Of a stretch of DNA of 64,000 nucleotides, positions 1 through 32,778 are shown piece by piece. The notes under the pieces were generated by a model. It had not been told where the DNA came from. It saw only the letters and a list, made by a program, of their open reading frames with translations, and made no database searches. Source of the stretch: a virus. Both the position numbers and the translations under genes were made by a program. The stretch spans positions 32,001 through 96,000 of IMG/VR virus record IMGVR_UViG_3300020048_000042; one strand, 5' to 3'. Position 1 is the stretch's first letter. Each line of letters starts with the position of its first letter.

Positions 1-16
1 AGATGCAAAAGATTAT

Positions 17-2323
17 ATGGAAGCGATGGACTTGCTTTACAATCCAGAGTACTACAAACAAACAGTTGGTAGAATTCAGGATGGTAGATTTAAGTATGAG
101 CTTTTAGAATTTGTAGACAACATACAAGATCGTATCAGAAGCACAATTATGTTTACTGTATCTAATTCTGATTCAGATGACATGTTTGAAAGAATGGAGC
201 TTATTGCAAAGTTATACGAGCAGTTAAATACTGCAATAACAGAAAGCGAATCTTACAAAAATTTAGTTCTTCTTGGTATTGATGAAACATTAGGATTGGA
301 TCATGCAAAGTTTGCAGAGGAAAATGCTAAAAAGTTAAATGAAGTTCTTCAAGAAAAGATTGCAGAAATTGTAGATACATATGCTCCTTCAGCAATGTCT
401 GATGATTTAAGTGATGAAGATTACGCACAGTTCCAGAAAACAACTAAGATTTCTGGAATCAACATGAACATAATTGCAAGAAAGGTTCAATCAGAAAGAG
501 CATTGAGCACAAGACAAGCAGAAGCATATCAAGCAAACAAAGATGCTATTGATGTTCTTGTAAATAGACTCAATGATGCATTGGAAGGTTCTGAGAAATC
601 TGTTATGCAGGATATGTCATTGTATGGTGTTGCAAGAGAAAAACTGATTGAAACTGGTGAGTTTACTGAAGATGACTTGAAAGCAATGACTGATAAGCAA
701 GTTCTTGATTTAGCATTAAGTAGAGGTCTTATTGATCCTGCAGAAGCATTGAAGAACGCAAATGGTTATGAGGAAATTTCAGACGATGTTTGGAACAACT
801 TTATTGCAAATCAAGAAGTTGAAGAAGGTGTTCTTGAAAATATTGCATCACGTGATTATCAAGGCATTGCACTTACAGAAAGAGAAAAAAGTATCCTTGA
901 CGCTAGAGCAAGTGAAATTGCTGACATTCAGGATAGAATAGAAAGAGAAGAAGCTGAAGCTAATCCAGTAGTAGATGAACCTGTAGAGGAAGTTGAACCA
1001 CAAGAACTAGAACAAGCAACAGATACTGATGAAACAACTACTGATAATGTAGGTGGAACAGTATCTAATGCACAAGCTGGAGAAGAAGCATTACTTGCGT
1101 CCATTGCACAAATGAATGGGGGTAGTACTACAGATGATTCTTTTGAAGTCAAAGGTTCTGAAGACGAAGGATTTGATGTTACATCCAAAGATGGTATTAA
1201 CGTAAACTCTGAGAAGATTGAAAGTGAAGATGAAGCATTTAATTTAGCAGACAATCTTAACAATGGTCGTAGTAACATTGATTGGGCTAGAGAATTTCTT
1301 GGTGATTTGTCAACAGATGAAGAGGGTACTTTAAAAGTTGATAGAATGGTCAACTCAGGTAAGAGATCTTTAACTGCTTACAATAAAAAGAATGGCACTG
1401 ATATCAAAACTCTTGAGGATTACTATAAGATCATTGATGGTAAAATGACATTGGATATGATTAAGGAATCAATCCTTACAAACACACCTTTAGCAAAAAT
1501 AAAAGCACAACGCAAGAAACAAGCACGTGTAGATTCAAAAGAAGAGGATTTGTTTGATAGTACAGCATCGCCATTTGTTGGTGGACCTGCATTACCATTA
1601 CAATCAATACAAGATTTGTTTGATAGACTTGAAAGTATGTCTGCACAAACACCAGCAGTTGACGTAGTTTTAAAGTTGAATGTAGAATCTACTACAAAAA
1701 ATGGTAACGAGAGACTTATCAGTGATGATACATCTATAAAAATGGGTGATGAATCTCAAGAACTTAGTAAGTTAAAACGATATGGTAAGACTAATTACTA
1801 TATCAACAATGGAGTACTTGGTGTAATCATTGAGGGCAAAGATTTATTTGGAAGAGATGGTGGTTCTACAAAAGTAAATGTTAAAGTTCCAGAAGGTTTT
1901 GATGAAACTGTTTTTGCAAAACTTGTAGCAAAAATTAAATACCCTAAGTCTACTACACCTGCAGAAACAGAAAGAGTATTAAATGAAATTAGAGATGCAA
2001 TTCAAAAATCAATTACTCCAACTACTACAAATACTAAAACTGATGTAGAAGCTAGAAGAAAATACAGTATTGAAGAATTAGGTGTTACTGTAGGCGATGA
2101 TGGAAAAATAGCAGGACTATATATTTCTAATGAGCTAAATGATGATGGCACAGTTAGAACTATAAGAATAACAGGTCCATCTGTGCAAGCAGTTACAGAC
2201 AGACTGAATGCAAAATATAATGCAGAAAATTCAGAAAAAATTGGTAAATTTGTTAGTGAGGAAGAGGTGTCTGAAGACACAGTTCTTGATCAACTTAGAA
2301 AAATAAATTCTTGTTTTAAATAA
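17..2323 (+). CDS. Large acidic virion/ejection (cargo) protein, C-terminal part; reading frame is open to the left window edge
   Basis: 768-aa ORF with no in-frame stop back to position 2; acidic helical composition; first of a tandem of giant ORFs containing a virion RNAP; ends NSCFK. Confidence 0.6.
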   Translation: MEAMDLLYNPEYYKQTVGRIQDGRFKYELLEFVDNIQDRIRSTIMFTVSNSDSDDMFERMELIAKLYEQLNTAITESESYKNLVLLGIDETLGLDHAKFAEENAKKLNEVLQEKIAEIVDTYAPSAMSDDLSDEDYAQFQKTTKISGINMNIIARKVQSERALSTRQAEAYQANKDAIDVLVNRLNDALEGSEKSVMQDMSLYGVAREKLIETGEFTEDDLKAMTDKQVLDLALSRGLIDPAEALKNANGYEEISDDVWNNFIANQEVEEGVLENIASRDYQGIALTEREKSILDARASEIADIQDRIEREEAEANPVVDEPVEEVEPQELEQATDTDETTTDNVGGTVSNAQAGEEALLASIAQMNGGSTTDDSFEVKGSEDEGFDVTSKDGINVNSEKIESEDEAFNLADNLNNGRSNIDWAREFLGDLSTDEEGTLKVDRMVNSGKRSLTAYNKKNGTDIKTLEDYYKIIDGKMTLDMIKESILTNTPLAKIKAQRKKQARVDSKEEDLFDSTASPFVGGPALPLQSIQDLFDRLESMSAQTPAVDVVLKLNVESTTKNGNERLISDDTSIKMGDESQELSKLKRYGKTNYYINNGVLGVIIEGKDLFGRDGGSTKVNVKVPEGFDETVFAKLVAKIKYPKSTTPAETERVLNEIRDAIQKSITPTTTNTKTDVEARRKYSIEELGVTVGDDGKIAGLYISNELNDDGTVRTIRITGPSVQAVTDRLNAKYNAENSEKIGKFVSEEEVSEDTVLDQLRKINSCFK

Positions 2324-2334
2324 ACTCTTGAAAA

Positions 2335-5300
2335 ATGGGATGTACAATAGCTACTGAACAATATATACCTGTAGTAGAAAACCTTATTAAGTTAAATTCA
2401 GAAGTATATAAAAACTTTGATAACGCTGCAAAATTTATATTACAGTCAGACTTAACAGGTGAACAGAAAAAATTAGCGTTACACAATATGGCCCATATTT
2501 ATAATGGGCTTTCTGGTTTAGATGCTACTGTCTATAATTTGGGTAAAGGTATTGACATAATTAAAGGTGTGAACTTGATTGATGATACAAAAGCGTACAT
2601 TAAGTTTTCATCAGATTTGTTTGGTGTAAAAGAACCATTACCTCCAACAAGTACAGGAATTGATAAGAGTATTGAGGCTCTGACAAAACTGTCTTTGATT
2701 ACAGTTACAGATTTAACAAATGTATCTGGACCTTTGTCATTGATCAAACAGTATTTCAATACTCAAGTGTTTGACACATTAGAAGAAAGAGACTTTACAA
2801 TAGAATCTTTTAGAGCAATACTACGTGATGTAATATCCAACATGAGTAAAGCTGATGAGGGTTACAAACAGGTTTTATACAATACCATAGAGGATGTCTT
2901 TAGTACGCTAGAGAAAAAGTCTGAATACATTGATATTAATACAGTAGTTGATCTTGCAAATTTAGATACAGTCTTATTGACTTTGGATAATGGATCAATG
3001 GTTGAAGGTGTGCTTTATGATGATGGTACAATTGATGTTGTAAATGCAGATGGTACATTAGAGCCAATGGAAGCATCAAGAATTGTTTCTCAAAAAAGAG
3101 CAAGACCAGCTGACTCTTCATATTCAAATGATGGTAAGCAAGTATTCAATGAAGATTTCTTTTTATCAGGTTTAGTAATTGATTCTGTAAATCCAGAAGA
3201 ACGCGTTGAGTTGATAGAGGCATTGAGAAAAATGAGTGTGCCATCTGCTGGTATAAAAATATCTGCAGTTAAGCTAAGTAATGTTGGTGACATTCGTGTA
3301 CAACGAATGAAAGAAGTAGCATTTCAAGATACAAGTTTAGCACCTCTTTCAAGAAGAGATCACGAAACTTTTGAAAACAGTACGCAAGTTGCGTATTTGG
3401 AATCTACACCAAATGGAAAAGTTCTTACTGTATCTCGCCCAAAAGCGAGTGAGCAAGAATTTGCTTTGGTAGGTGAGATACTTGCAACTGGTCAGAAGTT
3501 TTACATATACTCTATGGAGAACTTTGCTTTTGTATCAAGTGATAACACAACAGAACTTTTAGATTTATCAAATCCAGGACACCTTGCAATGTTGCAAGAA
3601 ATGTCTGTGAAGTCAACAACTAATAGCATAAGCCCATTAGAGAATTCTGATATGGCTTCAATTGTAGCTTCTCAGAAACTTTATGAGAGGTTTAAAGAAA
3701 GAGTCTTAGCAAAAGTAGGATCTGCATTTGACGCGAATACTTCAGTAGATGTAACAGATGAGTTTGTACAGTTGTATGATTTTTCAACACAGCGTGGCTC
3801 ATCTCCTGTCTACAAGCTTTTAAATGAAGCCGTGGAATCTAACCCTCAGTTTAGCAAAATAGTTACTGTGGTGGACGTAAATGCATCAAATGAAATAGTA
3901 AACGAAGAAACTCGCAAGTTGCCTTTCTACTTTTACAAAGAAATCAATTACAAAACAAAAACAATTCAATACAGACCTGTATCATTCTTAAAAGGAAATC
4001 AAAGAATCAAAGTTGAATTACCTGATGGAACAGTAAGAATAATCACTGAACAATCATATGTTAATGAAGTTCTTAATCTTCCTGAACAGATTACTGAGAT
4101 GTTTAAGGATGAGGATGCAAGATTGGTTGGCCTGATGAATAACAATGAGTCTCTTGCTAAAGTTGCAAAGACTATGCACTTTGTTGTAAAGTTTCCAAGT
4201 GAAGGAGGAATTTCATATGCATCTGCAAGAAGAAATGATCAACTTGAGTTTGGTGAATTCTTTGCAAAATACATTGTAAGTTTATCTGAGGTATTATTAA
4301 GTCCACAAAAGACAACAGCTCTTCGTAACTTTAGAAAGTTGCAATATGACTTTATGCCTTCTGCTATTTCAGGCAAAGGAATGATTTTAAGTTATGAGTT
4401 TGCAACTGCTCGTGCAGCTGAAGGATACCAATTACAGTTAGAAGTAAGACCATATTCTCAGAACTCTGATAGATATGGCAGTGCTATAACAAACGAAACA
4501 AAACGTTTCTTTAATTTCAAGATTGATGAGGGTATGATAAATGGCCTTGCTAAATCATTGAAAGGTGAGGGAAGTTTATTGAAAGAAGTAGTTGCTGAAA
4601 ATCCAAGCTTAGCAGGATATGACTTGAACAAATCAGATGACTTACTTAATTTTTACACTGATGTTTACGCTATGTCTGAATCAGGTATGGCAACAGACAG
4701 CATTAAGAAATTAGTTTCTGAAATCAGTAAAGCTCAACAAAATTTTACACAAGCAGTTATTGACTCAGTTATAAAACCTTTACAGGAAAACAAAGAAGGT
4801 GTTTACACTGACTTTATGGAACTTGCAAAAGAAGATTTTAACTTTACAAATGGTGTAAATCTTGAGGCAATGTTTTCTACAGGACGCGAGGATGGTAAAA
4901 AATCATTACGTGTTGTGTCACCTTTGGTAGTAGGAACACCAAATGACAACAGATCAACATACAATAGTTCAATGAAAAACTTGAGCATATTAGAATCTGG
5001 ATCACGTAAGTCATTTAAACTGGTATCTAAGTCTCCAATTAATGTAGCACCAAGTGATCAAGCTTCTGATAACATGGACCACACTGCAGCTCAAAAGGCT
5101 ATTGTAGATGATGTAGCAGAAACAGAAAACCAACCAGTTGCTATCACACCAATTGATACAAATGATACGCCTTTGAATTTAAAAGAAGAAGGAGATGTGT
5201 CTGATCAAGCAGAAGAAGACGATGATATTATTGACATTGAACCTTTCTCAATTGCATCTGGTGAAATTCAACCTGCAACAAACGATGAAATACTAAGTGA

Positions 5301-8300
5301 AGCAGAATGGTTAGCAGAAATGCTTCCTCAATTTGGTTTAGATAGAACAACATTAAAAGATGTTATTAACCTTTCAAAGATTGATGGTGCAGTCTTGGGT
5401 ATGTTCAAAGACAAAATGATTTACTTGAATGAGGCACTTCCATCTAAGGGTACTGTATTTCATGAAGCATTTCATGGTGTATTTAGATATTTACTTACAC
5501 AGAAAGAAAGAGACGCATTAATTGCAGAAGTAGTAAACAATCCAACACATGCTTCCAAGTTTGAAGCTGATGCTGTTTATGAATTTGCAAGAGTTCGTAA
5601 CATAACAACAACAAACTTTGATACACTGATTCAGTTAATTGCTGAAGAGGTTCTTGCTGATGGATTCCAAAGCTATATGGCCAAGGCAAAACCTGCAGCT
5701 CCAAAAACAGCAATGCAAAGATTCTTTGACATGCTAAAAAGGTTGTTGGCACTTTTCATAAAAAACAGAAGTGAAATTGAAAACACATACGACAAAGTAA
5801 AAAGTGGGTATTACAAGACAGCTACAATCCAATCAAATATGTTTGATGGGCAAGTTGCTTATGAAGTAATTCCTGGCCTTATCAAATACTATTCAAATGA
5901 AGAAGGTGCAACATTGCGTGCACAGTCTACACTAAACCCATCTGAGCAAGTTCAACTTGTGAATATGGTTGTTGGTGTTATTTTTCAAGACAAAGCTCAG
6001 TCTGATAATTTTGATACTAAATTTCAACGTGCAGTAGATAAAGTTCTTGAAGAAGTTTACAGCATGGAGAAACTTGTAAATCAAAATCCAGCTATGAAAG
6101 ATGCAATCATTGCCAAGTATGGTCCAATGATTTCTTCATTTAGATTTGTGTTGGGTGCAAGAATGAAAGGGTTATCTGTAATGGATATCAATCTTTCTGG
6201 TGATGCAAAAAATGATAACAAGCAATCCCCAAATACTATCAATCTAATCAATGATGAAAAGATTGATAATACAATGGGTCAGCACTCATTTGATGTATTG
6301 CGTAAAATTGTAAAAGAGAAGTTTGATAAAACAAATTCTGTAAAAATTGCTCAGGAACAAGATGAGTTTACAATTATTGATGACGAAGTTGTTGCTACAT
6401 TCACTGGTGAAAATGCCAATGTGGTTAATGATGACGAAGCGCAATCAGCTCGTGAAGAGTTAGAGAACAACGACTTTGAGGCAGGTTTTGGTGAACAAAA
6501 CAGAATGGATTCATACGTATCTCAGATCAGAAGATTTCTGTCTACAATTCGCAATGATCAATTTGATGCTGACTTAAATATCAATTTGCCACGCATGGTT
6601 GATGGAGATTATATCTTTCCAACAATGCTTAAGATTACTGCAGGTTTAGCTCCACAAAACATCATTGATGCAATTGGAGTAATGGGTAAGCAGATGATTA
6701 AAGATGGCTTTACACAATCAGGTAAAGACTTAAGTGCTATTGCTGATGCTATTAATGTATTGACAAAAGCTGATCCTGAAGGAAATCCACAATCTAATAG
6801 ACAACTACGACAATTGTTAATTGAAGTGTTGCATGGTGTTGAGTTAAACTACACAATGTTTAATGTAACAACGCCAAAGCAAGTTTCCATTAAAGAAACA
6901 ACTAACATGAGTGAGTTGATGGATTCTAAAGCTGTTACATTTAGATTATATGACAAAGTTGTAGACGCTGATATTACAAAGAAACGTAATGACATTGTTG
7001 CAAATTTCTTAAAGAAACATTCGTCCAGTGCAAACGATGCAGCATTTAAAGAAGCAGTAAATGTGTTAATTAACTTTCCAAAAGAATGGTTCTCACAACC
7101 TGATTTGCTTTCAGGATTACGTGGTCAAACAATAATGGCCATGGAATTCACAACTAAAATTCACAAAGCTTTAGAAACAATTGGTATGAATATACCAAAG
7201 TCTCTTGTTGAGTTATCAATTTTAGGAATGAACAAAGCAGAAAACAATATTGAGTTGGCTGTTGATGTTGAGATGCAAAAGTTTTATGACGTAAATGAGA
7301 ACTTTGTTAAACAAGCTCAATATCTTGAGAAGGATTTCTTCAGAAGTTTGTCTTACATTTTAACTAATGCATATGTTGATGGCAAACCAAATGTAAGGTT
7401 AAAAACTATAATGGATGATCAGAATTCAAAAGATGCGCAAATTAATCGCTTCATGGTAATTCTTAAAAAGGCATCAACATACATTGTAAAATATGATCCA
7501 ACTGATATTCCTAGTGTTATTAAAAATGCTGAAGGAAAGTCAATATATCGTTTTGCTAAGTACAATCCTTTAGTGCTATTGACAGAGCGTTTAAATACAA
7601 TGACACTTGAAGAAGCTTTGTCAAATGATCCATACTTTACAAATTCATTAAAGAACTTTATTTCTGACAATGCAGTCCTTGGACCATTGTTAAATAATGA
7701 AACAGGAACTGACGTAGAAAAGATACAGTTGTTCTTGGATAATTTTACAATGTCAATGTTTGGTGGTGTACAACAAAGAATTGGTGATATTGCAAAACAA
7801 GGTCAAACTTTTAAATCAATAGATGAAAGATCTTTGTACATGTTGCAGTTGTTATCATTTATGAATATGAAAAGTGTTCGTGACAAAAATGGTAATGAAA
7901 TTACTACATACATGAGACCATTCCACCAGTTGGAAGCAACACAAACAAATTTTCTTGTATCTGCAATGTATACACCATTTGTTTCTAAATCAAATGTTAC
8001 TGTTAAAAATCAATTGGGTCATGCATTATATAAAGATGATTATTGGAAAATTGTAGAAGACCTAGAGGCTGTTGTAAAACAAGAATACAAACGTATTGCA
8101 AGAGAATGGAATCGTCGTTTAGAGCTTAAGGCTAACTATGAAAGTGGTGTAAGTAATCAGTTAAACAATAACTATAATGCTATTCTTAATGATGATAACA
8201 AAACTGCAAATGTTGATGCAGATAATCTAAGAGCTTACAAGTTTAACATACTAAGTGATTTCTTCCAAAATGAAAACAACACTAGTCTTGCGAATGATTT

Positions 8301-11300
8301 AGTAGAACTTGCAAAATCACAACAAGATTTTGATTCTGCTGATCTTTCTAACTTGCGTAATAAGTTAAATGAGTTTGCAAAAGAACAGTTTCAAATGTAC
8401 ATGGAAACTTTGGAACGCATTCAACTTATCCAAAAGTTACCAATACCTGAAGGTCAAAAAGCATATGACCCACGTCCTGGTGTTGAAAAAGTTGAAACAT
8501 ACTTTGAAGCATCAATGTTGCCAGAAAAAATTAAACTTGATTTTAATAGCACAAGTTTGACTGAAATGTATCCACAACCACAAGGTGTTAATACAAAAAC
8601 AACAAATCCATTGATGCCAGTTGAGTCTTTGTTATATGACAAGTTCATGAACAACTGGAGAAATGCATTACATTTCAATCAGTTGATGGATGGTGATATG
8701 GCAATGAACGTTAAAAATCCACAGGATTATGTAAAACGTTTAAAGAAAGTTGTTGCTACTGGTTCCAATATGAAAAATGGAACTCACAACGTTGCTTACA
8801 TGAACACAATTACAGCATTTGTACATGACATGTATCCACAGTATGGCCCTTACTATAAGCGTGAAGAAATCATTAGTGACTTCATGATTGAGTCTGAAGC
8901 ATTACGCGATGAGTTACTAGAAGGTTATGACAAAGCTGTTGACGGTACTGTAGAAGCAATTCTGGATACAACTGTTAAGTGGGGTGACATGATACGTGAG
9001 GTTTTTGATGGTCAAAGTATATCATCATTAATGCACCAAATGGACATGCATGATACTCTTGGAAGACTTGATGATCGTGGTTTACACATTCTTGTTGCTA
9101 AACATTATAGAGCATTGACAGAAGATGAGACTAGATATCTTGAGTCAATGAAGATTGTAAACAATGCTAAGAAAACAGTAACCGCAGCTCGCAACATTTA
9201 TCATAAAGATTCTGAATCTTATATTGATAGAGGTGACGTTAGTGTTTTAAACATTGAGAAGACAGAAGATGAAACAATTGATGTTGCAACAGAACGTGTG
9301 TTTAATGAACTACATGGTTTGTATTTGTCAGTTTATGATTTAAGAAAAGATCGTGAAGAAGCAGCAACAATGCCTGATGCTGCAAATCAAGTAGCAATGA
9401 TTAATAGTGCTATTGGTAGTATTTATGTAAAGATTCATAATTATTATACACCACTTCCTCACAGACAGATGATGCATGATATTTTGAATTCTATGGAGAT
9501 GCATCAAGTAGATCAGTTGATGGATACGACAGCTTCAAAAAATGCTACACTTTTACCTATTGATGTTTACAGTGCTGATAGAAAAGATGGATACATTAAC
9601 TTTGGTCTTGCAACACTTGCTGTTCCAAACTCTGCTAAATACTTACAGGTTGAAACAAGTGGTGTAAAAGAAAAAGCAAAACACTCAGTACAATCTAAAT
9701 TATTATTACCTGCAGATATTTCAGAAAAAGAATTTACAAAAATCATTGAAGTAGAAAATGAAAGAACTGGCAAGCAAGCAACTGAATCAGAGATGCGTGC
9801 AATGTTAGATGTAAAAAATGCATTGAATGACTATCAATTATCACTTAGCAAGTCTACAAAAGCACGTTTGACATACTTCAAAAATGTTTTGAGAAAAGGT
9901 AGTGACTTTGAGTTGGGTAAAATCTTTACAATGATTCGCGAAAGCTTGCAGCAACAAAATGCACCAATGAATATTTTGGACATGTTTGCAGTTAAGCCAG
10001 ATGGTAAACCAGTCTTTAGTCCTAACTTAAGTTTGATAAGAAACACTTTGGAATATTACATGATTGCACAATACAGCAAGAATGTGACAGATGAAAAAGT
10101 CGCAGGATTTAAAAACTTTCATGAGAGTGCTTTTGGGTATGAAGTGATGGTAGATTTGGAAACTGGTAAGATAGTAACCACACAAGAGATTGCAGAAAAT
10201 CCTGATACGTTTAAAGATAAAGCACGTTTTAAATCACGCCCTTTGTCTACTACAGTTGAAATACAAGCTGATGGAAGCAAACTATATTTTGTAGAATGCA
10301 TTCTTCCAAAACCATATTTTGAGAACGTTCAACAAGAGCAATTTTACATGGACAACCTTACAAAAATGTTTGGTGTTCGTATCCCTACAGAGGATAAACG
10401 ATCTATGATAGCATTAAAAGTTGTTGATTTTACAGATTCTTCTAAATTAAACAACATTATTGTACCACACTTTGTACACATGCTTGCAGGATCTGACTTT
10501 GATATTGATTCATTGTTTGGTCGTATGATGTCTTACTACAAAAATGGTAAAGGAAACTATTCATTATATGGTGACTACAGTCAATATGATGATATGGAAA
10601 AAGGTGAGTTCATTGAGTTCTTACATTTTATGTCTAAGAATGATGACTTTGGTCCTTTAATTAAAGCACGTAAAAAACAACTCATTGATGATGGAACAAT
10701 TTCTATTCCAAGTGAAGGTGTGTTGTTTGATGTGTTAACTGGTCTAGGGTATACAATAGATGAATTAGGAGAGTTCTTTGACCAAAAAGTTCTTAAGTCA
10801 AAATACAAAGATCAAAAAGAATTTACAAGTTACATGTTTGATTTAACTACTGAATCAAAAGAACTATATGTTAATGCTAAAGAAATTGCTGATCAAAATC
10901 CTGAGAACAGAGAGTTAGCTAACACACGAAATTCTTATGGTAAAGAGCATGCTGACTTAAAAGCAATTCGTCAAACATCTGTTGCAGAACAAAAAGCAAT
11001 CAAAGAAAAGCTTCGTATTATTGATTCAGCATTTGAGTATCAAGCAATGGTGGATGTAATGTCTCAGTATGGATTACCAAGTAATCTTTCTGAATTTATA
11101 TCAAAACCACAATATTCTGAAATGGTTTCTAAGAAGTATGAAAATGCAAACTTAGATGCAAGTCTTAGAATCATTGGTAATGAAGCAGTCTTTAAGTACT
11201 TGTACATTAACCAGCGTGCTTCTGCAAATCAATTCTTAGAAATCTTGTCTAAGTTTGGAATTGATATGAAGACCATTACACAAAAGGCCAATCTATTTAC

Positions 11301-14300
11301 ACCAACAAATATGGTGGCATCTAAGATTGAAAACAACATGAACAAAGATGGTATTGGTCGTACAGCTGTTATGAATAAGTTTTTAGCACTTGCAAGTCAA
11401 TATGAATTGATTCTTGATGAGGAAGCTGTTGTGTGGAACTTTCAAGATCTAAATGGTAAATTTGTAAACAAGGATACGTTTGGTCAACTTAATGAGAAAG
11501 ACCAACGTGTTATATCAATTATTGGTAATATTCTTGGAGTGTTTGCAGATGCTGCTAAAGATCCAATTCCTGCAGCGTTGCAGATGAATGAAGTCAATGC
11601 AAGTACAACACTTGCAATGATTGGTATTGGTTTAGATCCAGAATTTGCAGTAGCGTTTAACTTCTTACCTGAAGTACGTAAAGCTGCACTCGCTGTACAA
11701 CAATCACAGTTTGCAATTTCTGAGGGACTTGACCAAGATTACAAATTCTACAATTCAGCAATCACTACTCAAATAGAAGACTTAGTAACTAAAGATCCTG
11801 ATACTCTTACAAGATTAAAAGTTCTTGGTATTGTAACTCCAAAGTCATGGCCTGGTCGTATAGTTCTTGATTCAAGCAAAGTTAAAATTGGATTTGAGCC
11901 TAAAGGGTTGAGCATCTATGCTTTAAAGAATGACTTGTTAACACCATCTGCAATTGGATTTGAAATGCGTGATGCAATGACAGACGTTCCTCTTAGTGAA
12001 AACGAAATGAAAGTTGTGTTGTTGTCACTGTATGCTAAACAAGCTCAGCAAACTTGGTCAATGAACAGAGTAGCATCTATGACAAATTTGTTCAAAAGAC
12101 TTAATCCAAGTTTGGTTGCATTTGACAAGATGCGTGACAACATCCAGGAAATAAGAGAAAATAAACTATTTGATGAGGCATCTGTTAATAGGCTATTTAA
12201 AGGTGATCAAGTATGGAATGTACTTGAAGATACATTGAATGACGCAAATGATCAGTTCTCTAAAATATTCTTGGAACGTACACTGTTCTTTAAACCAATT
12301 ACTTCAAGTTTTAAGAGATACTTTGAGGATCCAAAAACTATTGCAAATACTTTAACTAGCTTTTTAGCCATCAACAAGTTTAAAATGACATTCCCTAACT
12401 CACGTTCTAGTAAGAACGCTTACATGCAGGGAATCATTGATCAAGACAACGCTGCAATCTTGCAAACATTTACTCCTGAGTATTGGTTTACAAATGACTT
12501 ATACACTCAGATAGAGAAAATGCGTGAGAAGTATCCAGAAAATGACTTCTTGAAACTTTTAAGACCAGATGAGTCTGATAATACTGCAACTGTAATATAC
12601 AATAGTAAACCTTATCCTGGAATCAAAGAGCGATTTGTAAAGTTAATTAGTAAAGCAAAAATCAAAGGTGATTATGCAAACAAAATTGCTGATGATGTTA
12701 CGTTCTTGTATAATCAAGGTACAGTAGATGAAAAACTATTTGTCAAAAAATTGTTTTATCATGAGCTGGCACGTACTGGATTACAATATGCTGAAGGATC
12801 TTTCATTTCATATATGCCTGCAGAACTTAAAGTACCAATTTCAAATTATATTGAAGAGTTTATTAATGGTCTTGATGCTGTAGCAAAAAGTTCTAATTTT
12901 GAAGAAGACTTTATCAATTTTATGAAAGACTATATTGGTAAAGATTCTCAAGTTGATATTTACAAATTCTTTGATGAGATGTTTTCTCAGCTTGCGTTTG
13001 CAGCATCTTCAGAAAATAACAATAGAAAAATTCCAAAGTTTATTGATAGAGATGATACTGCAAGTATGTCATTTAAGATTAACTCAAAAGAGCCTCAATA
13101 TACGAAAGCAATTGTTAAAGCATTTGTACCTGACAATGCTACTATGGATAGAAAAACATTGCCTGATGCCAAAGCAAAAGCTATTGGACATGTATATACA
13201 GCATTTGGATATCAGACTCCTGTAAGAGCAGATCTTGATAAGATTGGTAAAGTAAACATTATTGATCTTGCAGGTAGTGAGTTTACTCTTGATTTATCAA
13301 GTGGGACTGGTGAAGAAAACAAAGCAAACATAATCTTAGGATCTATGCTTGGAATACGTCGCGATCCTTCTGAGCCAGACTCTACAGATTTTGTATTCCC
13401 TGCAATTGTCAGAATTGGTAATAACACTTTTGTTTTACAAGGTGTTGATACTGGTGCAGAAACATCAAAAAGTATTGGTACTAATTTAGTTGAAGCTATT
13501 GTAGGAAAAGGAGTATTTACTTCTATAGGATCAGTTGCACGATACACAGCAATACCATCACAGTACTCTTCAAAATCATTAAGTCCTATTGGATTTACTA
13601 CAGAAGATGCAGAAACTTATAATAGATATGTCACTAAGAAGGAAGGAATTGTTCTTAATGCTGAGGTTGTTGACGACAATGCTAAAGCACAAATTGAAAA
13701 CCCTAAGAAAGTAGTAAGTGGTAATGAGTTAATTGGACTATCAGCATCTGAAAGATTTACTAGAAAATCAGTTGAACAAGATTCTGAGTACTTGTATTTG
13801 TTTACTGATAATGCACAAAGAACATCTGGTACAGGGAAAGTTAATGCTGACGGCTGGTATGCACAAAAATATGGTGCAACTAAAAAGTATCCAGGAAAAA
13901 CACAAGCTGTTGCAAGAGGTCTTGACAATGCATATCCAATAACAACAATGGTTGATGACAAAAGAACTCAGTGGTCTGATGTACAATTTGATACTTACAA
14001 AGCAATCATTGATGATGAGATAGAAACAATTAAGAAAGCTGCTACAAACTATAAAGGAATTAAGTTTGGTGCAGAAATGCCATTTGGACAAGGTGCAATT
14101 TCTAATATGAAAGATAGTGCTCCTAAAACTTGGGCGTATCTTAACACAAAACTTGCAGAACTTGGTATTGATAATACAGGAACTACACCTATAGCTGGTG
14201 CTAAACCACAGAGTGACTCTGCAAGTACGAATCAAATTAATGCAGGTGAAGATTTATTGAATGGGCTTATGAATCAAGGTACAGATAACACAAGTGAAGT

Positions 14301-14748
14301 TTCAGAAGACCAAATAGAAGCTGGTGAGGATTTCTTAAAAGCATTTATGGCTGGACAACTTGGTGAAACTAACGCAGTGGTTCCTAAAATTCAGGCAGGA
14401 CGATTTGTAACTTATAAAGGTACATCTTACATAGTCACACAACAAAATGCAAATGGTACTTGGCAAATATACAATCCATTACTGGAAGGTGCAGCTGCTA
14501 AGATATCAGTTTCAGAAGCAAATCTAAAAGCAAATGAGACACTTGCAAAAATTGTGGAGTATAATGGTGCTGAATATATTGTGACACCTAAGAATACTAT
14601 CATATCTTTGACGTCAAATAAAAAGATGAATTGGGATGAAAACAATGGTGATAGAAAAGCAGTTCTTGCATTAGCAAGACAGAACAAAACAATCATCAAA
14701 CCAAACAACAGACCAAGCATTGATCCAACAGATGAAAACAACTGTTAA
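2335..14748 (+). CDS. Giant virion-packaged RNA polymerase polyprotein (crAss/phi14:2 gp66-like two-barrel RNAP) with N-proximal zincin-like domain and C-terminal accessory domains
   Basis: 4137 aa; catalytic motif GSDFDIDSL (DFDID at 10495-10509) preceded by GVRIP (10378-10386); DYVKRLKK and FDGQS motifs; HEAFH...EE zincin motif at 5461-5475. Confidence 0.85.
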   Translation: MGCTIATEQYIPVVENLIKLNSEVYKNFDNAAKFILQSDLTGEQKKLALHNMAHIYNGLSGLDATVYNLGKGIDIIKGVNLIDDTKAYIKFSSDLFGVKEPLPPTSTGIDKSIEALTKLSLITVTDLTNVSGPLSLIKQYFNTQVFDTLEERDFTIESFRAILRDVISNMSKADEGYKQVLYNTIEDVFSTLEKKSEYIDINTVVDLANLDTVLLTLDNGSMVEGVLYDDGTIDVVNADGTLEPMEASRIVSQKRARPADSSYSNDGKQVFNEDFFLSGLVIDSVNPEERVELIEALRKMSVPSAGIKISAVKLSNVGDIRVQRMKEVAFQDTSLAPLSRRDHETFENSTQVAYLESTPNGKVLTVSRPKASEQEFALVGEILATGQKFYIYSMENFAFVSSDNTTELLDLSNPGHLAMLQEMSVKSTTNSISPLENSDMASIVASQKLYERFKERVLAKVGSAFDANTSVDVTDEFVQLYDFSTQRGSSPVYKLLNEAVESNPQFSKIVTVVDVNASNEIVNEETRKLPFYFYKEINYKTKTIQYRPVSFLKGNQRIKVELPDGTVRIITEQSYVNEVLNLPEQITEMFKDEDARLVGLMNNNESLAKVAKTMHFVVKFPSEGGISYASARRNDQLEFGEFFAKYIVSLSEVLLSPQKTTALRNFRKLQYDFMPSAISGKGMILSYEFATARAAEGYQLQLEVRPYSQNSDRYGSAITNETKRFFNFKIDEGMINGLAKSLKGEGSLLKEVVAENPSLAGYDLNKSDDLLNFYTDVYAMSESGMATDSIKKLVSEISKAQQNFTQAVIDSVIKPLQENKEGVYTDFMELAKEDFNFTNGVNLEAMFSTGREDGKKSLRVVSPLVVGTPNDNRSTYNSSMKNLSILESGSRKSFKLVSKSPINVAPSDQASDNMDHTAAQKAIVDDVAETENQPVAITPIDTNDTPLNLKEEGDVSDQAEEDDDIIDIEPFSIASGEIQPATNDEILSEAEWLAEMLPQFGLDRTTLKDVINLSKIDGAVLGMFKDKMIYLNEALPSKGTVFHEAFHGVFRYLLTQKERDALIAEVVNNPTHASKFEADAVYEFARVRNITTTNFDTLIQLIAEEVLADGFQSYMAKAKPAAPKTAMQRFFDMLKRLLALFIKNRSEIENTYDKVKSGYYKTATIQSNMFDGQVAYEVIPGLIKYYSNEEGATLRAQSTLNPSEQVQLVNMVVGVIFQDKAQSDNFDTKFQRAVDKVLEEVYSMEKLVNQNPAMKDAIIAKYGPMISSFRFVLGARMKGLSVMDINLSGDAKNDNKQSPNTINLINDEKIDNTMGQHSFDVLRKIVKEKFDKTNSVKIAQEQDEFTIIDDEVVATFTGENANVVNDDEAQSAREELENNDFEAGFGEQNRMDSYVSQIRRFLSTIRNDQFDADLNINLPRMVDGDYIFPTMLKITAGLAPQNIIDAIGVMGKQMIKDGFTQSGKDLSAIADAINVLTKADPEGNPQSNRQLRQLLIEVLHGVELNYTMFNVTTPKQVSIKETTNMSELMDSKAVTFRLYDKVVDADITKKRNDIVANFLKKHSSSANDAAFKEAVNVLINFPKEWFSQPDLLSGLRGQTIMAMEFTTKIHKALETIGMNIPKSLVELSILGMNKAENNIELAVDVEMQKFYDVNENFVKQAQYLEKDFFRSLSYILTNAYVDGKPNVRLKTIMDDQNSKDAQINRFMVILKKASTYIVKYDPTDIPSVIKNAEGKSIYRFAKYNPLVLLTERLNTMTLEEALSNDPYFTNSLKNFISDNAVLGPLLNNETGTDVEKIQLFLDNFTMSMFGGVQQRIGDIAKQGQTFKSIDERSLYMLQLLSFMNMKSVRDKNGNEITTYMRPFHQLEATQTNFLVSAMYTPFVSKSNVTVKNQLGHALYKDDYWKIVEDLEAVVKQEYKRIAREWNRRLELKANYESGVSNQLNNNYNAILNDDNKTANVDADNLRAYKFNILSDFFQNENNTSLANDLVELAKSQQDFDSADLSNLRNKLNEFAKEQFQMYMETLERIQLIQKLPIPEGQKAYDPRPGVEKVETYFEASMLPEKIKLDFNSTSLTEMYPQPQGVNTKTTNPLMPVESLLYDKFMNNWRNALHFNQLMDGDMAMNVKNPQDYVKRLKKVVATGSNMKNGTHNVAYMNTITAFVHDMYPQYGPYYKREEIISDFMIESEALRDELLEGYDKAVDGTVEAILDTTVKWGDMIREVFDGQSISSLMHQMDMHDTLGRLDDRGLHILVAKHYRALTEDETRYLESMKIVNNAKKTVTAARNIYHKDSESYIDRGDVSVLNIEKTEDETIDVATERVFNELHGLYLSVYDLRKDREEAATMPDAANQVAMINSAIGSIYVKIHNYYTPLPHRQMMHDILNSMEMHQVDQLMDTTASKNATLLPIDVYSADRKDGYINFGLATLAVPNSAKYLQVETSGVKEKAKHSVQSKLLLPADISEKEFTKIIEVENERTGKQATESEMRAMLDVKNALNDYQLSLSKSTKARLTYFKNVLRKGSDFELGKIFTMIRESLQQQNAPMNILDMFAVKPDGKPVFSPNLSLIRNTLEYYMIAQYSKNVTDEKVAGFKNFHESAFGYEVMVDLETGKIVTTQEIAENPDTFKDKARFKSRPLSTTVEIQADGSKLYFVECILPKPYFENVQQEQFYMDNLTKMFGVRIPTEDKRSMIALKVVDFTDSSKLNNIIVPHFVHMLAGSDFDIDSLFGRMMSYYKNGKGNYSLYGDYSQYDDMEKGEFIEFLHFMSKNDDFGPLIKARKKQLIDDGTISIPSEGVLFDVLTGLGYTIDELGEFFDQKVLKSKYKDQKEFTSYMFDLTTESKELYVNAKEIADQNPENRELANTRNSYGKEHADLKAIRQTSVAEQKAIKEKLRIIDSAFEYQAMVDVMSQYGLPSNLSEFISKPQYSEMVSKKYENANLDASLRIIGNEAVFKYLYINQRASANQFLEILSKFGIDMKTITQKANLFTPTNMVASKIENNMNKDGIGRTAVMNKFLALASQYELILDEEAVVWNFQDLNGKFVNKDTFGQLNEKDQRVISIIGNILGVFADAAKDPIPAALQMNEVNASTTLAMIGIGLDPEFAVAFNFLPEVRKAALAVQQSQFAISEGLDQDYKFYNSAITTQIEDLVTKDPDTLTRLKVLGIVTPKSWPGRIVLDSSKVKIGFEPKGLSIYALKNDLLTPSAIGFEMRDAMTDVPLSENEMKVVLLSLYAKQAQQTWSMNRVASMTNLFKRLNPSLVAFDKMRDNIQEIRENKLFDEASVNRLFKGDQVWNVLEDTLNDANDQFSKIFLERTLFFKPITSSFKRYFEDPKTIANTLTSFLAINKFKMTFPNSRSSKNAYMQGIIDQDNAAILQTFTPEYWFTNDLYTQIEKMREKYPENDFLKLLRPDESDNTATVIYNSKPYPGIKERFVKLISKAKIKGDYANKIADDVTFLYNQGTVDEKLFVKKLFYHELARTGLQYAEGSFISYMPAELKVPISNYIEEFINGLDAVAKSSNFEEDFINFMKDYIGKDSQVDIYKFFDEMFSQLAFAASSENNNRKIPKFIDRDDTASMSFKINSKEPQYTKAIVKAFVPDNATMDRKTLPDAKAKAIGHVYTAFGYQTPVRADLDKIGKVNIIDLAGSEFTLDLSSGTGEENKANIILGSMLGIRRDPSEPDSTDFVFPAIVRIGNNTFVLQGVDTGAETSKSIGTNLVEAIVGKGVFTSIGSVARYTAIPSQYSSKSLSPIGFTTEDAETYNRYVTKKEGIVLNAEVVDDNAKAQIENPKKVVSGNELIGLSASERFTRKSVEQDSEYLYLFTDNAQRTSGTGKVNADGWYAQKYGATKKYPGKTQAVARGLDNAYPITTMVDDKRTQWSDVQFDTYKAIIDDEIETIKKAATNYKGIKFGAEMPFGQGAISNMKDSAPKTWAYLNTKLAELGIDNTGTTPIAGAKPQSDSASTNQINAGEDLLNGLMNQGTDNTSEVSEDQIEAGEDFLKAFMAGQLGETNAVVPKIQAGRFVTYKGTSYIVTQQNANGTWQIYNPLLEGAAAKISVSEANLKANETLAKIVEYNGAEYIVTPKNTIISLTSNKKMNWDENNGDRKAVLALARQNKTIIKPNNRPSIDPTDENNC

Positions 14749-14750
14749 TT

Positions 14751-15332
14751 ATGAAATGTAGAACTGACATAAAAAAGGCAATAGTCAAAAAAGCTATTGC
14801 TCAAAGTGAAACAAAGAACATTACAAGACTTTCTGAGTCTATCTTGTTTGTAAGTAACACTGCGTTTCCTAGTGGTAAAGCACAAGCATTTAGAGTTGCT
14901 GAAAGTGTTGTAAACAAAACCAATAAAGATTTCAATGGCCTTGTAGCTCATCGTAGAGAAATGACAACAGGACAAGAAATAGTTTTTAATCCAAGTCCTG
15001 AGCTAGTCACAATTTATTACAATGAGTATCTCAAAAGTTTTACTGAAAAGGAAGCTATAGCTATACAACGTGAGGATGCAGAACGTGCTGGTATTGAGTA
15101 TAGTGACGATTATCTTTTTGATAGTCCAGGTTCTGAGAACCCATTGTACAATATGTATGAAGATATGGCCAACTTGGAGTTAACTCCTGAAGTTATTGAG
15201 TATCTTTATAGCGACAGTAGTCAGCGAATGAGCATGATAAAATTTGCTCAGTCAGCTACAGACCTTATCTCAAATTTGAGAGGGTTGAATTATACAAATG
15301 ATGATATACTTGACAAAATAAAGTGTTTATAA
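14751..15332 (+). CDS. Small virion cargo-associated protein
   Basis: 193-aa ORF tightly packed between two giant ORFs (2-nt and 1-nt gaps); starts MKC, ends KCL. Confidence 0.55.
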   Translation: MKCRTDIKKAIVKKAIAQSETKNITRLSESILFVSNTAFPSGKAQAFRVAESVVNKTNKDFNGLVAHRREMTTGQEIVFNPSPELVTIYYNEYLKSFTEKEAIAIQREDAERAGIEYSDDYLFDSPGSENPLYNMYEDMANLELTPEVIEYLYSDSSQRMSMIKFAQSATDLISNLRGLNYTNDDILDKIKCL

Positions 15333-15333
15333 G

Positions 15334-18300
15334 ATGAGTGCATGTCCAAATCCAAATGACCAAGCCTGGAAAGACTTGGTGATAGCCTTTAATAGTGAAG
15401 CAGACGCAATGACTGCTTTTGTGCGTAATAACAATCAAGTACCAACAGTTGAGGAAGCAATGCAGATCCTGAAAGATTTAAGAATTCAGGATAAAGATGA
15501 ACAACTTTCTCTTGCATCTGATCAGTTTAAACTTTCACGTGCCGTTCAACAAAGAACAATGCTTGAGACTATGAAGTTTAGATCAAACAAAAATCAGAAG
15601 GTTACTATACAAAAGCTTATTGATATGAACCAATCATATCAAGACTTTTTAAATGACAACATTAAAGCTGCGCAAGAAGGCAATCCTGTAGAGCAAACGC
15701 TTAGTGTATCAAAGTTCATTGGTTCTTCTGAGTTTAAGGGTGATCCTAAAGAGTATGAGGCATTCAAGTTGTTTGGAACATTCATGCATGAGATTTTAGA
15801 ACTTGGTCAAGTTGAAGCTCTGAGACAAGATAAAACAATTGCACAAATTTACAATAGTGACTTCTTTGACAAAGTTTATGATGCGTATATGGCAAAACAT
15901 CCATTTGAAATTGAACGTTTGACAAAAGATGAAATGTATGAAATGGCATTAGGTCTTGTAGCAAATATCAATACTAAAAATGCAAGTGGTTATGTCATTC
16001 TTCCTGAAGTTACTGTTGTTGGTACATCAAAATCTGGTAGTAAGGTCATTGGACGTTTGGACATCTTAATGATTGACGCTGCAGGTAAAGTGCACATCTA
16101 TGACTTTAAAACTAAAAAGGTAAAATACCTTGTTGAGAGAAACGCGATTACAGGTGAAGAAGAAGTTAATGTTGACAAGGCCTTATATGGTCTTGCAATA
16201 AAAGAATTTCCAATTGGAAACAAGCCAGGTACTGCAGAGAAATTCAGGGAACTTCCTGTTAGAACTACATACGATACCTGGATGCTCCAACTTGATGTAT
16301 ACGAAAATATTTTAAAGCAAAATGATATCCCAGTTGCAAACAAAACCATTGCTGCACTGATGTATCAAATTGATGATGATAACAAAACTTATAAAGGACA
16401 AGTACTACATGTATTTGAAGATCAGGATTACTATGATCAAGCGCGTAGTGTTAAACTAAATACTGATGGTGTTTGGTTTAATGATGTAGATGCTACTTCT
16501 GATATTACGTTTGCGTTTAAAAGAGCAGTAAACATTGAGTTACCAATTGGTGAAGAAACTGAAGAGGAAATTAGATCAAAAAGCCCTGAAGAGTTATTTG
16601 ATATTAACCCTTCTGACAAGAACATGGAAGACTTTGTTAAGGTACTTGATGGTGTTATATCAGGCCAAATCACAAAAATCTATGAAGAAATTGATGACTT
16701 AACTAAAAAACCAAATCGTGATAAGCAATATGAAGATTTGCTTAAAGCACGTAGAGATACTCTTAACAATTTCAAAAAAATAATTGAGAAATTAAAAGGT
16801 TCAAATCCTTCAGTTCTTTTGAACTCAACAAACTTCTTTAATGCATTGAACACAATGGACAATGACTTGAAGACTATGTTTGAAATATCAAGACTTGCAT
16901 TAGAGGCTTACAAAACTTCTGCTAATCCATTAGACAACTTGCGTAATCTTGATAAAGTACGTGAAGCATTTAATAAAAGTGTTGTTCTTACACAGGTACT
17001 TGACGTGATGGATCAGATTGTTAATGAGGCAGCGATGTCTGAAGGCAGTACTATTACATCAGACAGTCCTGTGAGAAAGAAGTTGTCAGAACTTAATGCA
17101 TATGCTAATATGATACAGTCTAATTTTAAAGAGATTGGTATGGCAAATGCAATTGAGAACATAATGTCTGTTGGTGAAAAGGTATTCTCTGCAGTAAGTG
17201 AGCAACAAAAGGCTGCCATATTACCTGCACTTGAGAAAGCTAAGGCAGAATTAGAAGCACTAAAAACAAATCCTAAACTTGGATTGTACAGTAAGATAAA
17301 ATTTGCAACGTTTTCTTTGATGAACAAGAATTTCAAAGAGAAACTTAAAGAAGCAATGGGGCCTGAAGGAGATATTGTTATGTCTCGTATTGCAAAACTA
17401 GAGCGTGACATTATACGATTTGAAGGTTTAATGAAGGGTTATGATTTCTCAGAAGATGCAATCATGCAATACATTAATGGTATGACAGATCCTGGTTCTG
17501 CATTTTATCCTGGGATGCCAAATGCATTAGAGTCTGATACAATTCTTTCTGGATGGATGATGGATAAGGCTATTGCCTCTGCATCAAACTCTGACCTTGT
17601 GATATCATCATTTACAACAATGCTAAAAGACTTTAAGGCTCAGGCAGAGTATAATGTAATGACAGATGAGAAGTTGAAAAACTTTGATAGGTTACGTGAA
17701 AAGCTTTTGAATTCTGGATTTAGTCTTGAGTCATTAAACAAAGCAGTCTCTGAATGGAGAAAGGTTGTGTACTATGACAAAGAGAAAAAAGAAATGGTTG
17801 AAAAACGTGTTCTTACAATAGTAAAACCTTTTAGTGAAGAATACGAAAACACCTATAAAGGATTTAGCATTAGACTTAAAGAGTTAAATAGAGAAGTGTA
17901 TGATGTACGTTCTGTATATAACGAGAAGTTTGATACTCCTGAAAAGGATTCTGCGGAAGCAGACTTGTTAGCAAAAATTGCTGAGAGAGATCAACACAAT
18001 GACACATACATTGCATGGTTGTTAGAGAATGCTAATCTGCCATACACTGATGAGTTTTACAACTTACAGTTGATGTTGCCTCAAGAAATTCGTGATGCTC
18101 TTCAAAAGATTTATTTAGAGCAAGAAGTAATTTTACATAACGTAGGAAAAGGTAATGAGGTCTTGCTTGAGGAAGCAGATTTTGATAGACTTAAAGAACT
18201 TGACGCAGAAGCAAAACGTTTACGTATTTCTGCAGCAGATCAAAATGAAGACTATGCAACATACATTGAGAAGTTTAATGAGTTGTATGAGTATGATACC

Positions 18301-30759: not shown

Positions 30760-30892
30760 AATTTAAAAATTGAGGATTAATATTTTTTTTGTGAAGGGCA
30801 ACAAATATCGTAATTTTTCATTTGTGTTGCACTATGGAATAAAACTTTTTTCACTTTATTTCAAAAGTTAAATATAATTCAGATATTTGTGG

Positions 30893-30907
30893 TATATTAT
30901 ATTGAGG
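30893..30907 (+). promoter_or_regulatory. Candidate phage late promoter motif TATATTATATTGAGG
   Basis: Near-identical to 21436-21450; upstream of the lysis module. Confidence 0.5.
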
Positions 30908-30926
30908 ACAGTGGAGTACAAACTAA

Positions 30927-31439
30927 TTGAACATGAAGAAATTATTTGTACTCATTATTTTATTAGTGCTTACAAGCACATCTTGCGATCTTGCAAAGCG
31001 TTTCCAAAAACGCATTGATAAGTATTGCCCACTTTGTCCTACAAAAGATTCTACAGTAACAGTAATTGAGTATAGAGACAGCTTGATAAAAGTACCAGGT
31101 GATACTACAACAATTATAGACAGTCTGTACTGCGACTCATTAGGCAATGTTCTCTCAATAAGATTGTCAGAAAAAGAAGGTGAAATCACTAATCTAATTA
31201 ACAAACTCAAGAACAACAAACTCACAACGACAGCCATTGTCAAGACACAATATGTGAATGTTCCAGGAGTAACAATAGTAAAAACACGCGACATTATAAA
31301 AACACTTCCTGCAAAACAGGTTAAGTATGTTCCATGGTGGATCAATTTCTTAGCTGTTCTTGGAGGAATTACTTTTGTTTTTATACTATTTTATATTATA
31401 TACAAATTAACTCTTGGAAAATGGACACAACGTTTTTAA
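30927..31439 (+). CDS. Lipoprotein with C-terminal transmembrane helix; unimolecular-spanin-like
   Basis: MKKLFVLIILLVLTSTS-C lipoprotein signal; C-terminal WWINFLAVLGGITFVFILFYII TM; first gene of the lysis cassette. Confidence 0.6.
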   Translation: MNMKKLFVLIILLVLTSTSCDLAKRFQKRIDKYCPLCPTKDSTVTVIEYRDSLIKVPGDTTTIIDSLYCDSLGNVLSIRLSEKEGEITNLINKLKNNKLTTTAIVKTQYVNVPGVTIVKTRDIIKTLPAKQVKYVPWWINFLAVLGGITFVFILFYIIYKLTLGKWTQRF

Positions 31440-31720
31440 CTATTTCTATTTTTGTGGCCAGTACAGTTTTAACAGTACTTGGATTCTTTCTCAGAACAGT
31501 CTATCTGGATGCACGAAAAGACATTGAACTCCTTATGGAAAATGATCACAAACGAACAGAAGAAATTGGCAAGCTTAAAGGAAAAATTGATCTTGTACAA
31601 GTTGAAAACCAATTAAAGTATCAAGCGATACAAGAGTTGACACAGCTAGAGATAAAAAATCTAGCTAAAAATGTTGCAGATTTGTCTACTGCAGTAAAAG
31701 AGTTAATAATGAACAGATAA
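31421..31720 (+). CDS. Holin/antiholin-like membrane protein (likely start MDTTFLT)
   Basis: N-terminal TM (FLTISIFVASTVLTVLGFFL) followed by a coiled coil; directly upstream of the endolysin. Confidence 0.5.
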   Translation: MDTTFLTISIFVASTVLTVLGFFLRTVYLDARKDIELLMENDHKRTEEIGKLKGKIDLVQVENQLKYQAIQELTQLEIKNLAKNVADLSTAVKELIMNR

Positions 31721-31724
31721 TTAT

Positions 31725-32411: not shown

Positions 32412-32413
32412 CC

Positions 32414-32599
32414 ATGAACAAATTACAAATCTTAGGTGTCGCAAGACACATTCTAACATTTCTAGGAGGTATTCTAGTTGTTAAAGGAGCTATTGATGAG
32501 TCAACAGTAAACGAAATTGTTGGTTCTTTAATCACACTAGCTGGTCTTATCTGGTCAGTTACTGATAAAAAACCAAAGAAAGATGGCAGCGAAGGGTAA
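32414..32599 (+). CDS. Small two-TM holin
   Basis: 61 aa; RHILTFLGGILVVKG and EIVGSLITLAGLIWSV helices, basic C-terminus, next to the amidase. Confidence 0.7.
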   Translation: MNKLQILGVARHILTFLGGILVVKGAIDESTVNEIVGSLITLAGLIWSVTDKKPKKDGSEG

Positions 32600-32726: not shown

Positions 32727-32778
32727 AAGATGCAACTATGCTTCGTGTTTAGTTGGTTTTTCTTCTTCTGTTCAAGAG

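Follow-up and report, generated by a model that had tools for sequence, protein, structure and literature searches.

Paired terminal cysteines at the gene junctions of the RNA polymerase cargo module in a distant crAss-like phage and its relatives

The giant cargo proteins of a distant crAss-like phage carry nearly all of their few cysteines (Cys) at the termini that face the neighbouring gene, and this pattern is conserved among crassviruses and coupled to the sites at which the cargo module is split into separate genes. The phage is represented by a viral record of 122,312 bp (IMG/VR record IMGVR_UViG_3300020048_000042, about 97% complete), of which bases 32001-96000, a stretch of 64,000 nucleotides (nt), are referred to here as the window; coordinates are those of the window unless stated otherwise. 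The module consists of four consecutive genes on the plus strand, here called A, B, C and D, and homology indicates that it is the RNA polymerase cargo module of crAss-like phages, which is cut into four genes in this genome as opposed to two or three in other lineages. To judge from the sequences, the terminal cysteines are conserved at the protein level as a feature by which the C-terminus of each cargo protein is matched to the N-terminus of its successor.

Cysteines of the four-gene cargo block

Gene A encodes 1822 amino acids (aa), starts with MAAEDL and occupies genome positions 28855-34323, of which the 3' part falls into the window (1..2323). It is followed by gene B (2335..14748, 4137 aa), gene C (14751..15332, 193 aa) and gene D (15334..21417, 2027 aa, starting with MSACPNPN), the spacing between the genes being 1-11 nt. 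An initial annotation of the window had given the sizes of B, C and D correctly, while its value of at least 768 aa for A was that of an open reading frame (ORF) cut by the window border, and its total of about 7100 residues therefore rises to 8179 aa when the full-length genes are taken. Counted by script, these 8179 aa contain 7 Cys, which bears out the earlier claim that the proteins have very few; the recount did not reveal many extra internal ones. Six of the seven are located exclusively at neighbour-facing termini and all six are encoded by TGT (in the C-terminal motifs below, written with leading dots, the last letter is the last residue of the protein). At the first junction, Cys1820 of A (…INSCFK, 2312-2314), which is the sole Cys of this protein, is followed by Cys3 of B (MGC…, 2341-2343). 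At the second, Cys4137, the final residue of B (…DENNC, 14743-14745), is followed by Cys3 of C (14757-14759), and at the third, Cys192 of C (15324-15326) is followed by Cys4 of D (15343-15345), again the only Cys of its protein. Measured from Cys codon to Cys codon, the junctions span 2312-2343, 14743-14759 and 15324-15345, exactly as first described.

The two outer ends of the block are devoid of cysteine, as seen from the N-terminus of A (MAAEDL) and the C-terminus of D (…ILKRNQ). The absence of a C-terminal Cys in D had been pointed out in the initial annotation, as had the seventh, internal Cys in the polymerase. This residue, Cys2655 of B (VECIL; TGC, 10297-10299), lies 63 residues N-terminal of AGSDFDID, the catalytic motif of the RNA polymerase (B residues 2718-2725, 10486..10509), and is not conserved, its site being occupied by Ala in three relatives (L012, L014 and L017) and by Val in two others (L021 and L022).

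The remaining proteome of the phage contains 1.45% Cys, from which 118 would be expected in 8179 aa compared to the 7 observed (Poisson P = 3e-41), and six of these seven lie within the 30 junction-facing residues (chance P = 1.7e-14). Chance as a source of the terminal pattern was excluded by these statistics. The Cys frequency of A-D is thus far under the level of the phage's own proteome, but the termini are not free of Cys, as six have been retained there. The proteins flanking the block, of 882 aa upstream and 190 aa downstream, contain no Cys at all.

The assignment of the module rests on several matches. B 2517-2871 matched the catalytic region of crAss-like virion RNA polymerases with 25-28% identity (E to 2e-13; tblastn and blastp), and D322, F323, D324 and D326 were invariant in an alignment of this region (alignment A1); the match of A1 to the structure 6VR4 arises by construction, since A1 contains phi14:2. 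Residues 979-1138 of B matched the C-terminal part of crAss001 gp47 (residues 2094-2265, E 1e-8), and B combines this gp47-like region with a two-barrel virion RNA polymerase. D, which would be the gp49/g065-like last member of the chain, gave two matches which, like that of B to gp47, are weak but colinear, one between residues 1734-1895 and phi14:2 g065 1169-1319 (E 7e-4) and one between residues 1694-1784 and crAss002 gp33 3913-4006 (E 1e-5), the latter in the gp49-like half of a fused polymerase. In other lineages, A 126-1077 has its homologue in the N-terminal ~900 aa of fused proteins that are 4300-4900 aa long and hold the B-like region and the polymerase as well. The cut order in this genome is accordingly A, the gp47-like part plus polymerase, the 193-aa C-terminal domain and D, which gives three junctions. 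Homology and the position beside structural genes (phrog_1645) suggest that A-D are present in the virion and injected; the module proteins of phi14:2 and crAss001 have been detected in virions by mass spectrometry (PMC10172136; 10.1101/2020.03.07.982082).

Terminal cysteine pairs in other crassviruses

The initial annotation had raised the possibility that terminal Cys are conserved in the orthologous cargo clusters of crAss-like phages, and they were indeed found in phi14:2, in crAss001 and throughout 80 IMG/VR loci. The homologous modules of phi14:2 (g067-g066-g065, g066 being PDB 6VR4) and crAss001 (gp47-gp50-gp49) obey the same terminal-Cys rule, although they have two junctions instead of three and are cut at different sites. 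In phi14:2, there are 4 Cys in 5398 aa and all four lie at facing termini: the sole Cys of g067 (1797 aa) is its last residue, Cys1797, the polymerase g066 (2180 aa) contains only Cys3 and Cys2179, and Cys3 is the only one in g065 (1421 aa). In crAss001, gp47 (2341 aa) has only Cys2339, gp50 (2412 aa) has Cys5, Cys1334 and Cys2404, and gp49 has only Cys5. The gene for gp47 is located on the other strand, and 11.5 kb separate its 3' end from the beginning of the gp50 gene, yet the C-terminal Cys is kept, and it is therefore the order of the proteins in the chain that is conserved, while genomic adjacency is not required. Thus, the proposal that the proteins are chained in gene order holds with respect to the C-to-N terminal pairing, and not with respect to adjacency in the genome.

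The p-crAssphage type, crAss002 and cr8_1 have a gp47-like protein ending in …FSCM, …FVCS or …ITCK and a fused polymerase starting with MSC… or MANNC…; in two GenBank records the MSC… start requires that the first ATG be taken instead of an implausible upstream start. These records are CrAssphage ZA (L007:16146, ATT start) and crAss002 gp33 (L008:16119), for which the GenBank starts appear to be 21 and 32 codons too far upstream, respectively. With the first or internal ATG the proteins begin MSCGNIKL… (ZA) and MSCTPSNP… (crAss002 gp33), which fits the N-terminal Cys rule of many IMG/VR relatives.

The 80 IMG/VR loci were found with a profile of the catalytic region and taken with 10-kb flanks; they provided 97 junctions adjoining a giant ORF after dereplication by terminal peptides. 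A junction was scored as Cys-positive if a Cys was present in the last 6 residues upstream together with a Cys at position 3-6 downstream. Both Cys were present at 71 of the 97 junctions, neither at 21, and 5 were mixed (Fisher P = 5e-16, a value that overstates independence because the loci share ancestry). The 21 Cys-free junctions are the outer borders of the module, and all five mixed ones are due to ORFs of 164-211 aa inserted between giant genes that themselves keep the pair. Such inserted ORFs, some of them Cys-rich, were seen between paired cargo genes in L026, L029 and L039 and may be mobile genes. Two seeming exceptions, in L026 (14403) and L036 (15429), vanish with GTG starts, giving M-A-S-C… and M-T-C…; these starts overlap the stop region of the upstream gene, so that ATG-only calling hides the pairs.

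In 83 complete giant ORFs (250,257 aa) from these loci, 91 Cys were found in the terminal 6+6 residues and 149 (0.06%) elsewhere, and 44 of the 83 had no internal Cys. At the 71 paired junctions, the C-terminal Cys has 0-4 residues after it and its N-terminal counterpart is at position 3-6, with TGT as the codon in 53 cases and TGC in 18. The intergenic gaps reach ~600 nt, and pairs are retained over 270-600 nt in L030, L037, L049 and L056. Relatives of A end in …RCFS, …ACFK, …NCFS or …SCFK, those of B start with MAC, MAKC or MKQC, and in the alignment of D (alignment A3) M1, C4, N6 and N8 are invariant. It is also evident that a Cys is never present at the N-terminus of the first protein or the C-terminus of the last. 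The gut-type fused polymerases (L044-L091; 4000-4800 aa) had 4-17 internal Cys compared to mostly 0-2 in the environmental loci L024-L043, and selection against internal Cys thus seems weaker in gut lineages, the terminal pair being kept in both types. For the fused gp50+gp49 polymerases of Intestiviridae, which also have 4-17 internal Cys, the region of the old junction cannot be aligned with phi14:2 or crAss001.

The position of the gene breaks varies considerably between the loci. On the N-terminal side, the split lies ~600, 1360-1870, 2530 or 2640-2870 residues upstream of DFDID or is absent, and on the C-terminal side ~390, 820-930 or 960-1570 residues downstream of it or is absent. A pair was found at every split and none at the unsplit ends that form the module border. 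Where the A-like and B-like parts form one chain (L028, L032, L081 and others), there is a single Cys at the C-terminus, and a 4520-aa protein in L083 likewise has one Cys. As judged by these comparisons, the Cys pairs track protein ends and not homologous positions.

The junctions around C illustrate this behaviour. The initial annotation regarded the 193-aa protein as a linker, an idea that had to be abandoned, as C is evidently the C-terminal domain of the polymerase-bearing protein, split off here as a separate gene product, and does not represent a linker family of its own. In L015-L020 (polymerase core 41-49% identical), C is fused to B as one ORF, and the fused ORFs end in …K[IL]KCL or …ITCL, equal to the end of C. 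Over their final ~65 aa they can be aligned with the end of C, Y153, C192 and L193 being invariant, and they have no Cys at the site where this genome has …ENNC followed by MKC…. The sequences thus indicate that the fission between B and C was accompanied by two new Cys. In close relatives, whose C proteins are 69-74% identical, every junction Cys is retained. Since a word-indexed search for relatives of C gave only proteins that are at least 68% identical, and a related-locus search gave four close loci, the origin of C became clear only via the fused ORFs, which were themselves found through the polymerase. An AlphaFold2 model of C (mean pLDDT, predicted local distance difference test score, 63) was too weak for a fold search, and complex predictions for C (alignment A2) with D 1-500 (alignment A3) reached scores of 0.30 and 0.19, the mark being 0.32, which speaks neither for nor against binding. 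What this window adds to the other crassvirus modules is a version with four proteins and three junctions, and a datable gene fission, that between B and C, which appears to have given rise to a new Cys pair.

Between the giant proteins of L011 (phi14:2), L040, L046, L029, L036 and L013, short ones bearing a Cys at either end were also seen (204, 345, 384, 665 and 859 aa). Some of them cannot be aligned with C, and it would seem that double-ended adaptors have originated repeatedly.

Nature of the proposed link between neighbouring proteins

In the pre-ejectosome of cyanopodophage A4 (Anabaena phage A-4L), resolved by cryo-electron microscopy (cryo-EM), Cys1715 of gp27 and Cys5 of gp26 form a disulfide inside the capsid (PNAS 2025, PMC12002296). 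According to the record KF356198, these residues (…NPCQF and MSKHC…) are the only Cys of gp27 (1717 aa) and gp26 (1114 aa). Two neighbouring giant ejection proteins with one Cys each thereby display the same sequence signature as every junction here. The A4 case comprises one bond between two proteins, with no RNA polymerase in the pair, and its authors present it as a stabilising detail and not as a rule, whereas in the present phage there are three junctions between four proteins, and throughout an entire viral order the pairs come and go with the splitting and fusion of the genes. Comparison of A4 gp26-gp29 with A-D and the crAss references by blastp gave only E > 0.3; as far as sequence comparison can tell, the resemblance is functional or convergent and not one of family membership.

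We consider it probable that the paired Cys of the crassvirus modules form head-to-tail disulfides, resulting in a linear, polyprotein-like chain inside the virion. Each C-terminal Cys would become bonded to the Cys that occupies position 3-4 of its successor after particle assembly and oxidation, and A, B, C and D would be tied into one unbranched chain of ~8200 residues acting like the single polyprotein of some relatives. As in other ejected phage proteins, the remaining Cys would have been eliminated, so that no wrong or looping disulfides could form, and with the bond placed 0-4 residues from the chain end, the joint would be nearly as thin as a peptide bond. Such a chain could be packed at a fixed 1:1 stoichiometry and drawn like a thread, partly unfolded, through the narrow tail, after which reduction in the host cytoplasm would free the parts. 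We infer the bond itself, its timing, the ordered ejection and the reductive release; inside a capsid, where one is seen in A4, a head-to-tail disulfide is chemically plausible. Disulfides are favoured here because of the A4 bond, because crAss001 virions contain structural disulfides and the crAss001 cargo has to unfold in part if it is to get past constrictions in the tail (PMC10172136), because bonds near the chain ends would keep the chain linear, and because some crAss-like phages have the three proteins as a single polyprotein (preprint 10.1101/2020.03.07.982082). Intein or native-chemical-ligation chemistry was also considered and rejected, as in no case is the Cys the first residue and there is no intein domain.

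Several observations weigh against the disulfide chain. Phage assembly occurs in the reducing cytoplasm, and gut crassviruses inhabit an anoxic environment. The C-terminal Cys of crAss001 gp50 is followed by 8 residues in place of the usual 0-4, and 4-17 internal Cys are tolerated in the fused polymerases of gut lineages. Moreover, not every terminal Cys fits a simple chain, as Intestiviridae possess a gp45-like 'transmembrane' cargo protein with a single, extra Cys near its C-terminus, and the next protein has no N-terminal Cys. The unpaired Cys was found in CrAssphage ZA (795 aa, L007:5252-7639, …QSCR) and in crAss002 gp30 (557 aa, L008:5424-7097, Cys550); it may serve a homodimer or a bond to another partner, and the protein has no counterpart in this genome. 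The shared ancestry of the surveyed loci, mentioned above, also has to be kept in mind.

The terminal peptides, such as …[IL]K[KR]C[ILY] or M-x-x-C-[PYH]-N-x-N, might instead be conserved docking motifs, in which the Cys packs or hydrogen-bonds and the proteins join end to end with no covalent bond being formed. Conservation extends to residues next to the Cys (C192 and L193 in C; C4, N6 and N8 in D), and in A4 the C-terminal helix of gp27 enters a cleft of gp26 where the disulfide only 'further stabilises' the contact (PMC12002296). We nevertheless find docking alone unlikely, as the Cys is the only residue common to all junction types while the flanks vary (…ENNC, …FKC, …SFVCS, …CFK), a purely steric role would not need the very residue that is purged elsewhere in these proteins, and the equivalent A4 pair is bonded. 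Another possibility is that each Cys acts on its own, as an anchor to the portal or inner capsid, in a homodimer or as a modification site, the pairing across junctions being a by-product. The lone C-terminal Cys of the gp45-like protein of Intestiviridae, which has no N-terminal partner on the next protein, would be an example of this. Independent roles are difficult to reconcile with the near-perfect coupling across junctions (71 with both and 21 with neither, the 5 mixed cases being explained by inserted ORFs), with the first N-terminus and last C-terminus always lacking Cys, and with the fact that both Cys arise together at a gene split, as seen for B and C compared to their fused relatives; we therefore regard such roles as rather improbable.

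Two further explanations appear weaker. The initial annotation had offered a shared metal as its alternative to the disulfide. Thiolates are good metal ligands, and a metal ion held by the two terminal thiols and other ligands would bridge the neighbours in an equally reversible way, but each terminus has a single Cys, none of the junction classes shows a conserved His or a further Cys close by, and the two thiolates alone would make a poor site; as the A4 precedent is moreover a disulfide and not a metal site, we think it very improbable that the junctions share a metal. The short spacing of 1-11 nt and the use of TGT for all six codons in this window could also point to a signal at the nucleotide level, in which TGT or TGC near the stop and start codons serves translational coupling, re-initiation or ribosome hopping on Cys codons. 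This idea is effectively refuted by crAss001 gp47 and gp50, which are encoded on opposite strands 11.5 kb apart and both have the Cys. The pairs that persist across 270-600 nt gaps, the occurrence of both TGT and TGC, and the varying spacing to the stop and start codons likewise leave a nucleotide signal with next to no probability.

We judge the chances to be about even that the disulfide chain extends to an order-wide 'split polyprotein' in Crassvirales. In such a system, a disulfide would substitute for the peptide bond at each gene cut to give one covalent, unbranched thread of 5000-8000 residues with fixed stoichiometry, which would leave through the tail in a set order and come apart in the reducing cytoplasm, and A4 would be a second, independent case.

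Further features of the module and relation to known systems

Residues ~120-370 of D (window 15691-16443), located just after the N-terminal Cys, are predicted to resemble a PD-(D/E)XK nuclease. The AlphaFold2 model of this part had a pLDDT of 77, and its top Foldseek matches in the PDB were nearly all to Exo5, AddB, AdnAB, Cas4 SSO0001, RecE and MGME1 with probabilities of 0.9-1.0; the template modelling (TM) scores were low because only part of the model matches. D243 and D257-F-K259 were invariant in nine relatives, and Pfam and PHROGs gave no match for this part. The N-terminal part of D can thus be taken as a candidate PD-(D/E)XK nuclease, which should be viewed as a lead and not as a result.

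Neither Pfam nor PHROGs gave a match for A, C or D. A search of this genome for thioredoxin (PF00085) found none, so that a phage-encoded oxidoreductase cannot be invoked. The zincin-like protease domain, a feature of gp49/g065 orthologues, had no Pfam or PHROGs match in D, no profile-profile comparison having been made. A tblastn search with D residues 1-700 against GenBank phages gave no match, and sequence searches of the PDB with B and with a profile of the D N-terminus gave nothing useful. The only Pfam signal across A-D was a near-match in the C-terminal part of B, where residues 3806-3937 (window 13750-14145) scored marginally for DUF7831 (26.8 bits compared to a cut-off of 27).

With regard to other phages, the ejection operon of Schitoviridae (N4 gp50, a virion RNA polymerase, and DEV gp71-gp73) resembles the present module in that Cys is strongly suppressed in giant injected proteins, among them a virion RNA polymerase, which has been ascribed to their passage through the oxidising periplasm (PMC11445570). 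The two differ in that the Schitoviridae proteins have essentially no Cys, termini included, whereas in Crassvirales the internal Cys are purged and one is kept per facing terminus. Conversely, the fused crAss polymerase polyproteins contain the same domains in the same order, joined by peptide bonds where the present phage has a Cys pair at each break.

The initial annotation knew of no description of such a mechanism. This has to be modified as regards the single A4 bond, which is published, while the multi-link rule of the crAss-like phages was not found in the literature searched; within that literature, the A4 bond is its only published relative. The terminal cysteines of these proteins are not mentioned in the crAss001 structure paper (PMC10172136), the phi14:2 polymerase preprint (10.1101/2020.03.07.982082), a 2023 Crassvirales review or the 2026 paper on N4 ejection (PMC13434306), and full-text searches of the literature gave no mention of them either.

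Crassviruses have to pack and inject ~700 kDa of polymerase-associated protein. The cargo is invisible in the crAss001 cryo-EM maps (PMC10172136), and the 2026 study of phage N4 states that the crassvirus ejection proteins still need resolving (PMC13434306). The terminal-Cys rule is useful for annotation, as it locates true start codons and marks the giant ORFs of the module. A covalent head-to-tail chain, if true, would explain a fixed stoichiometry, an ordered exit and the purge of internal cysteines from these proteins.

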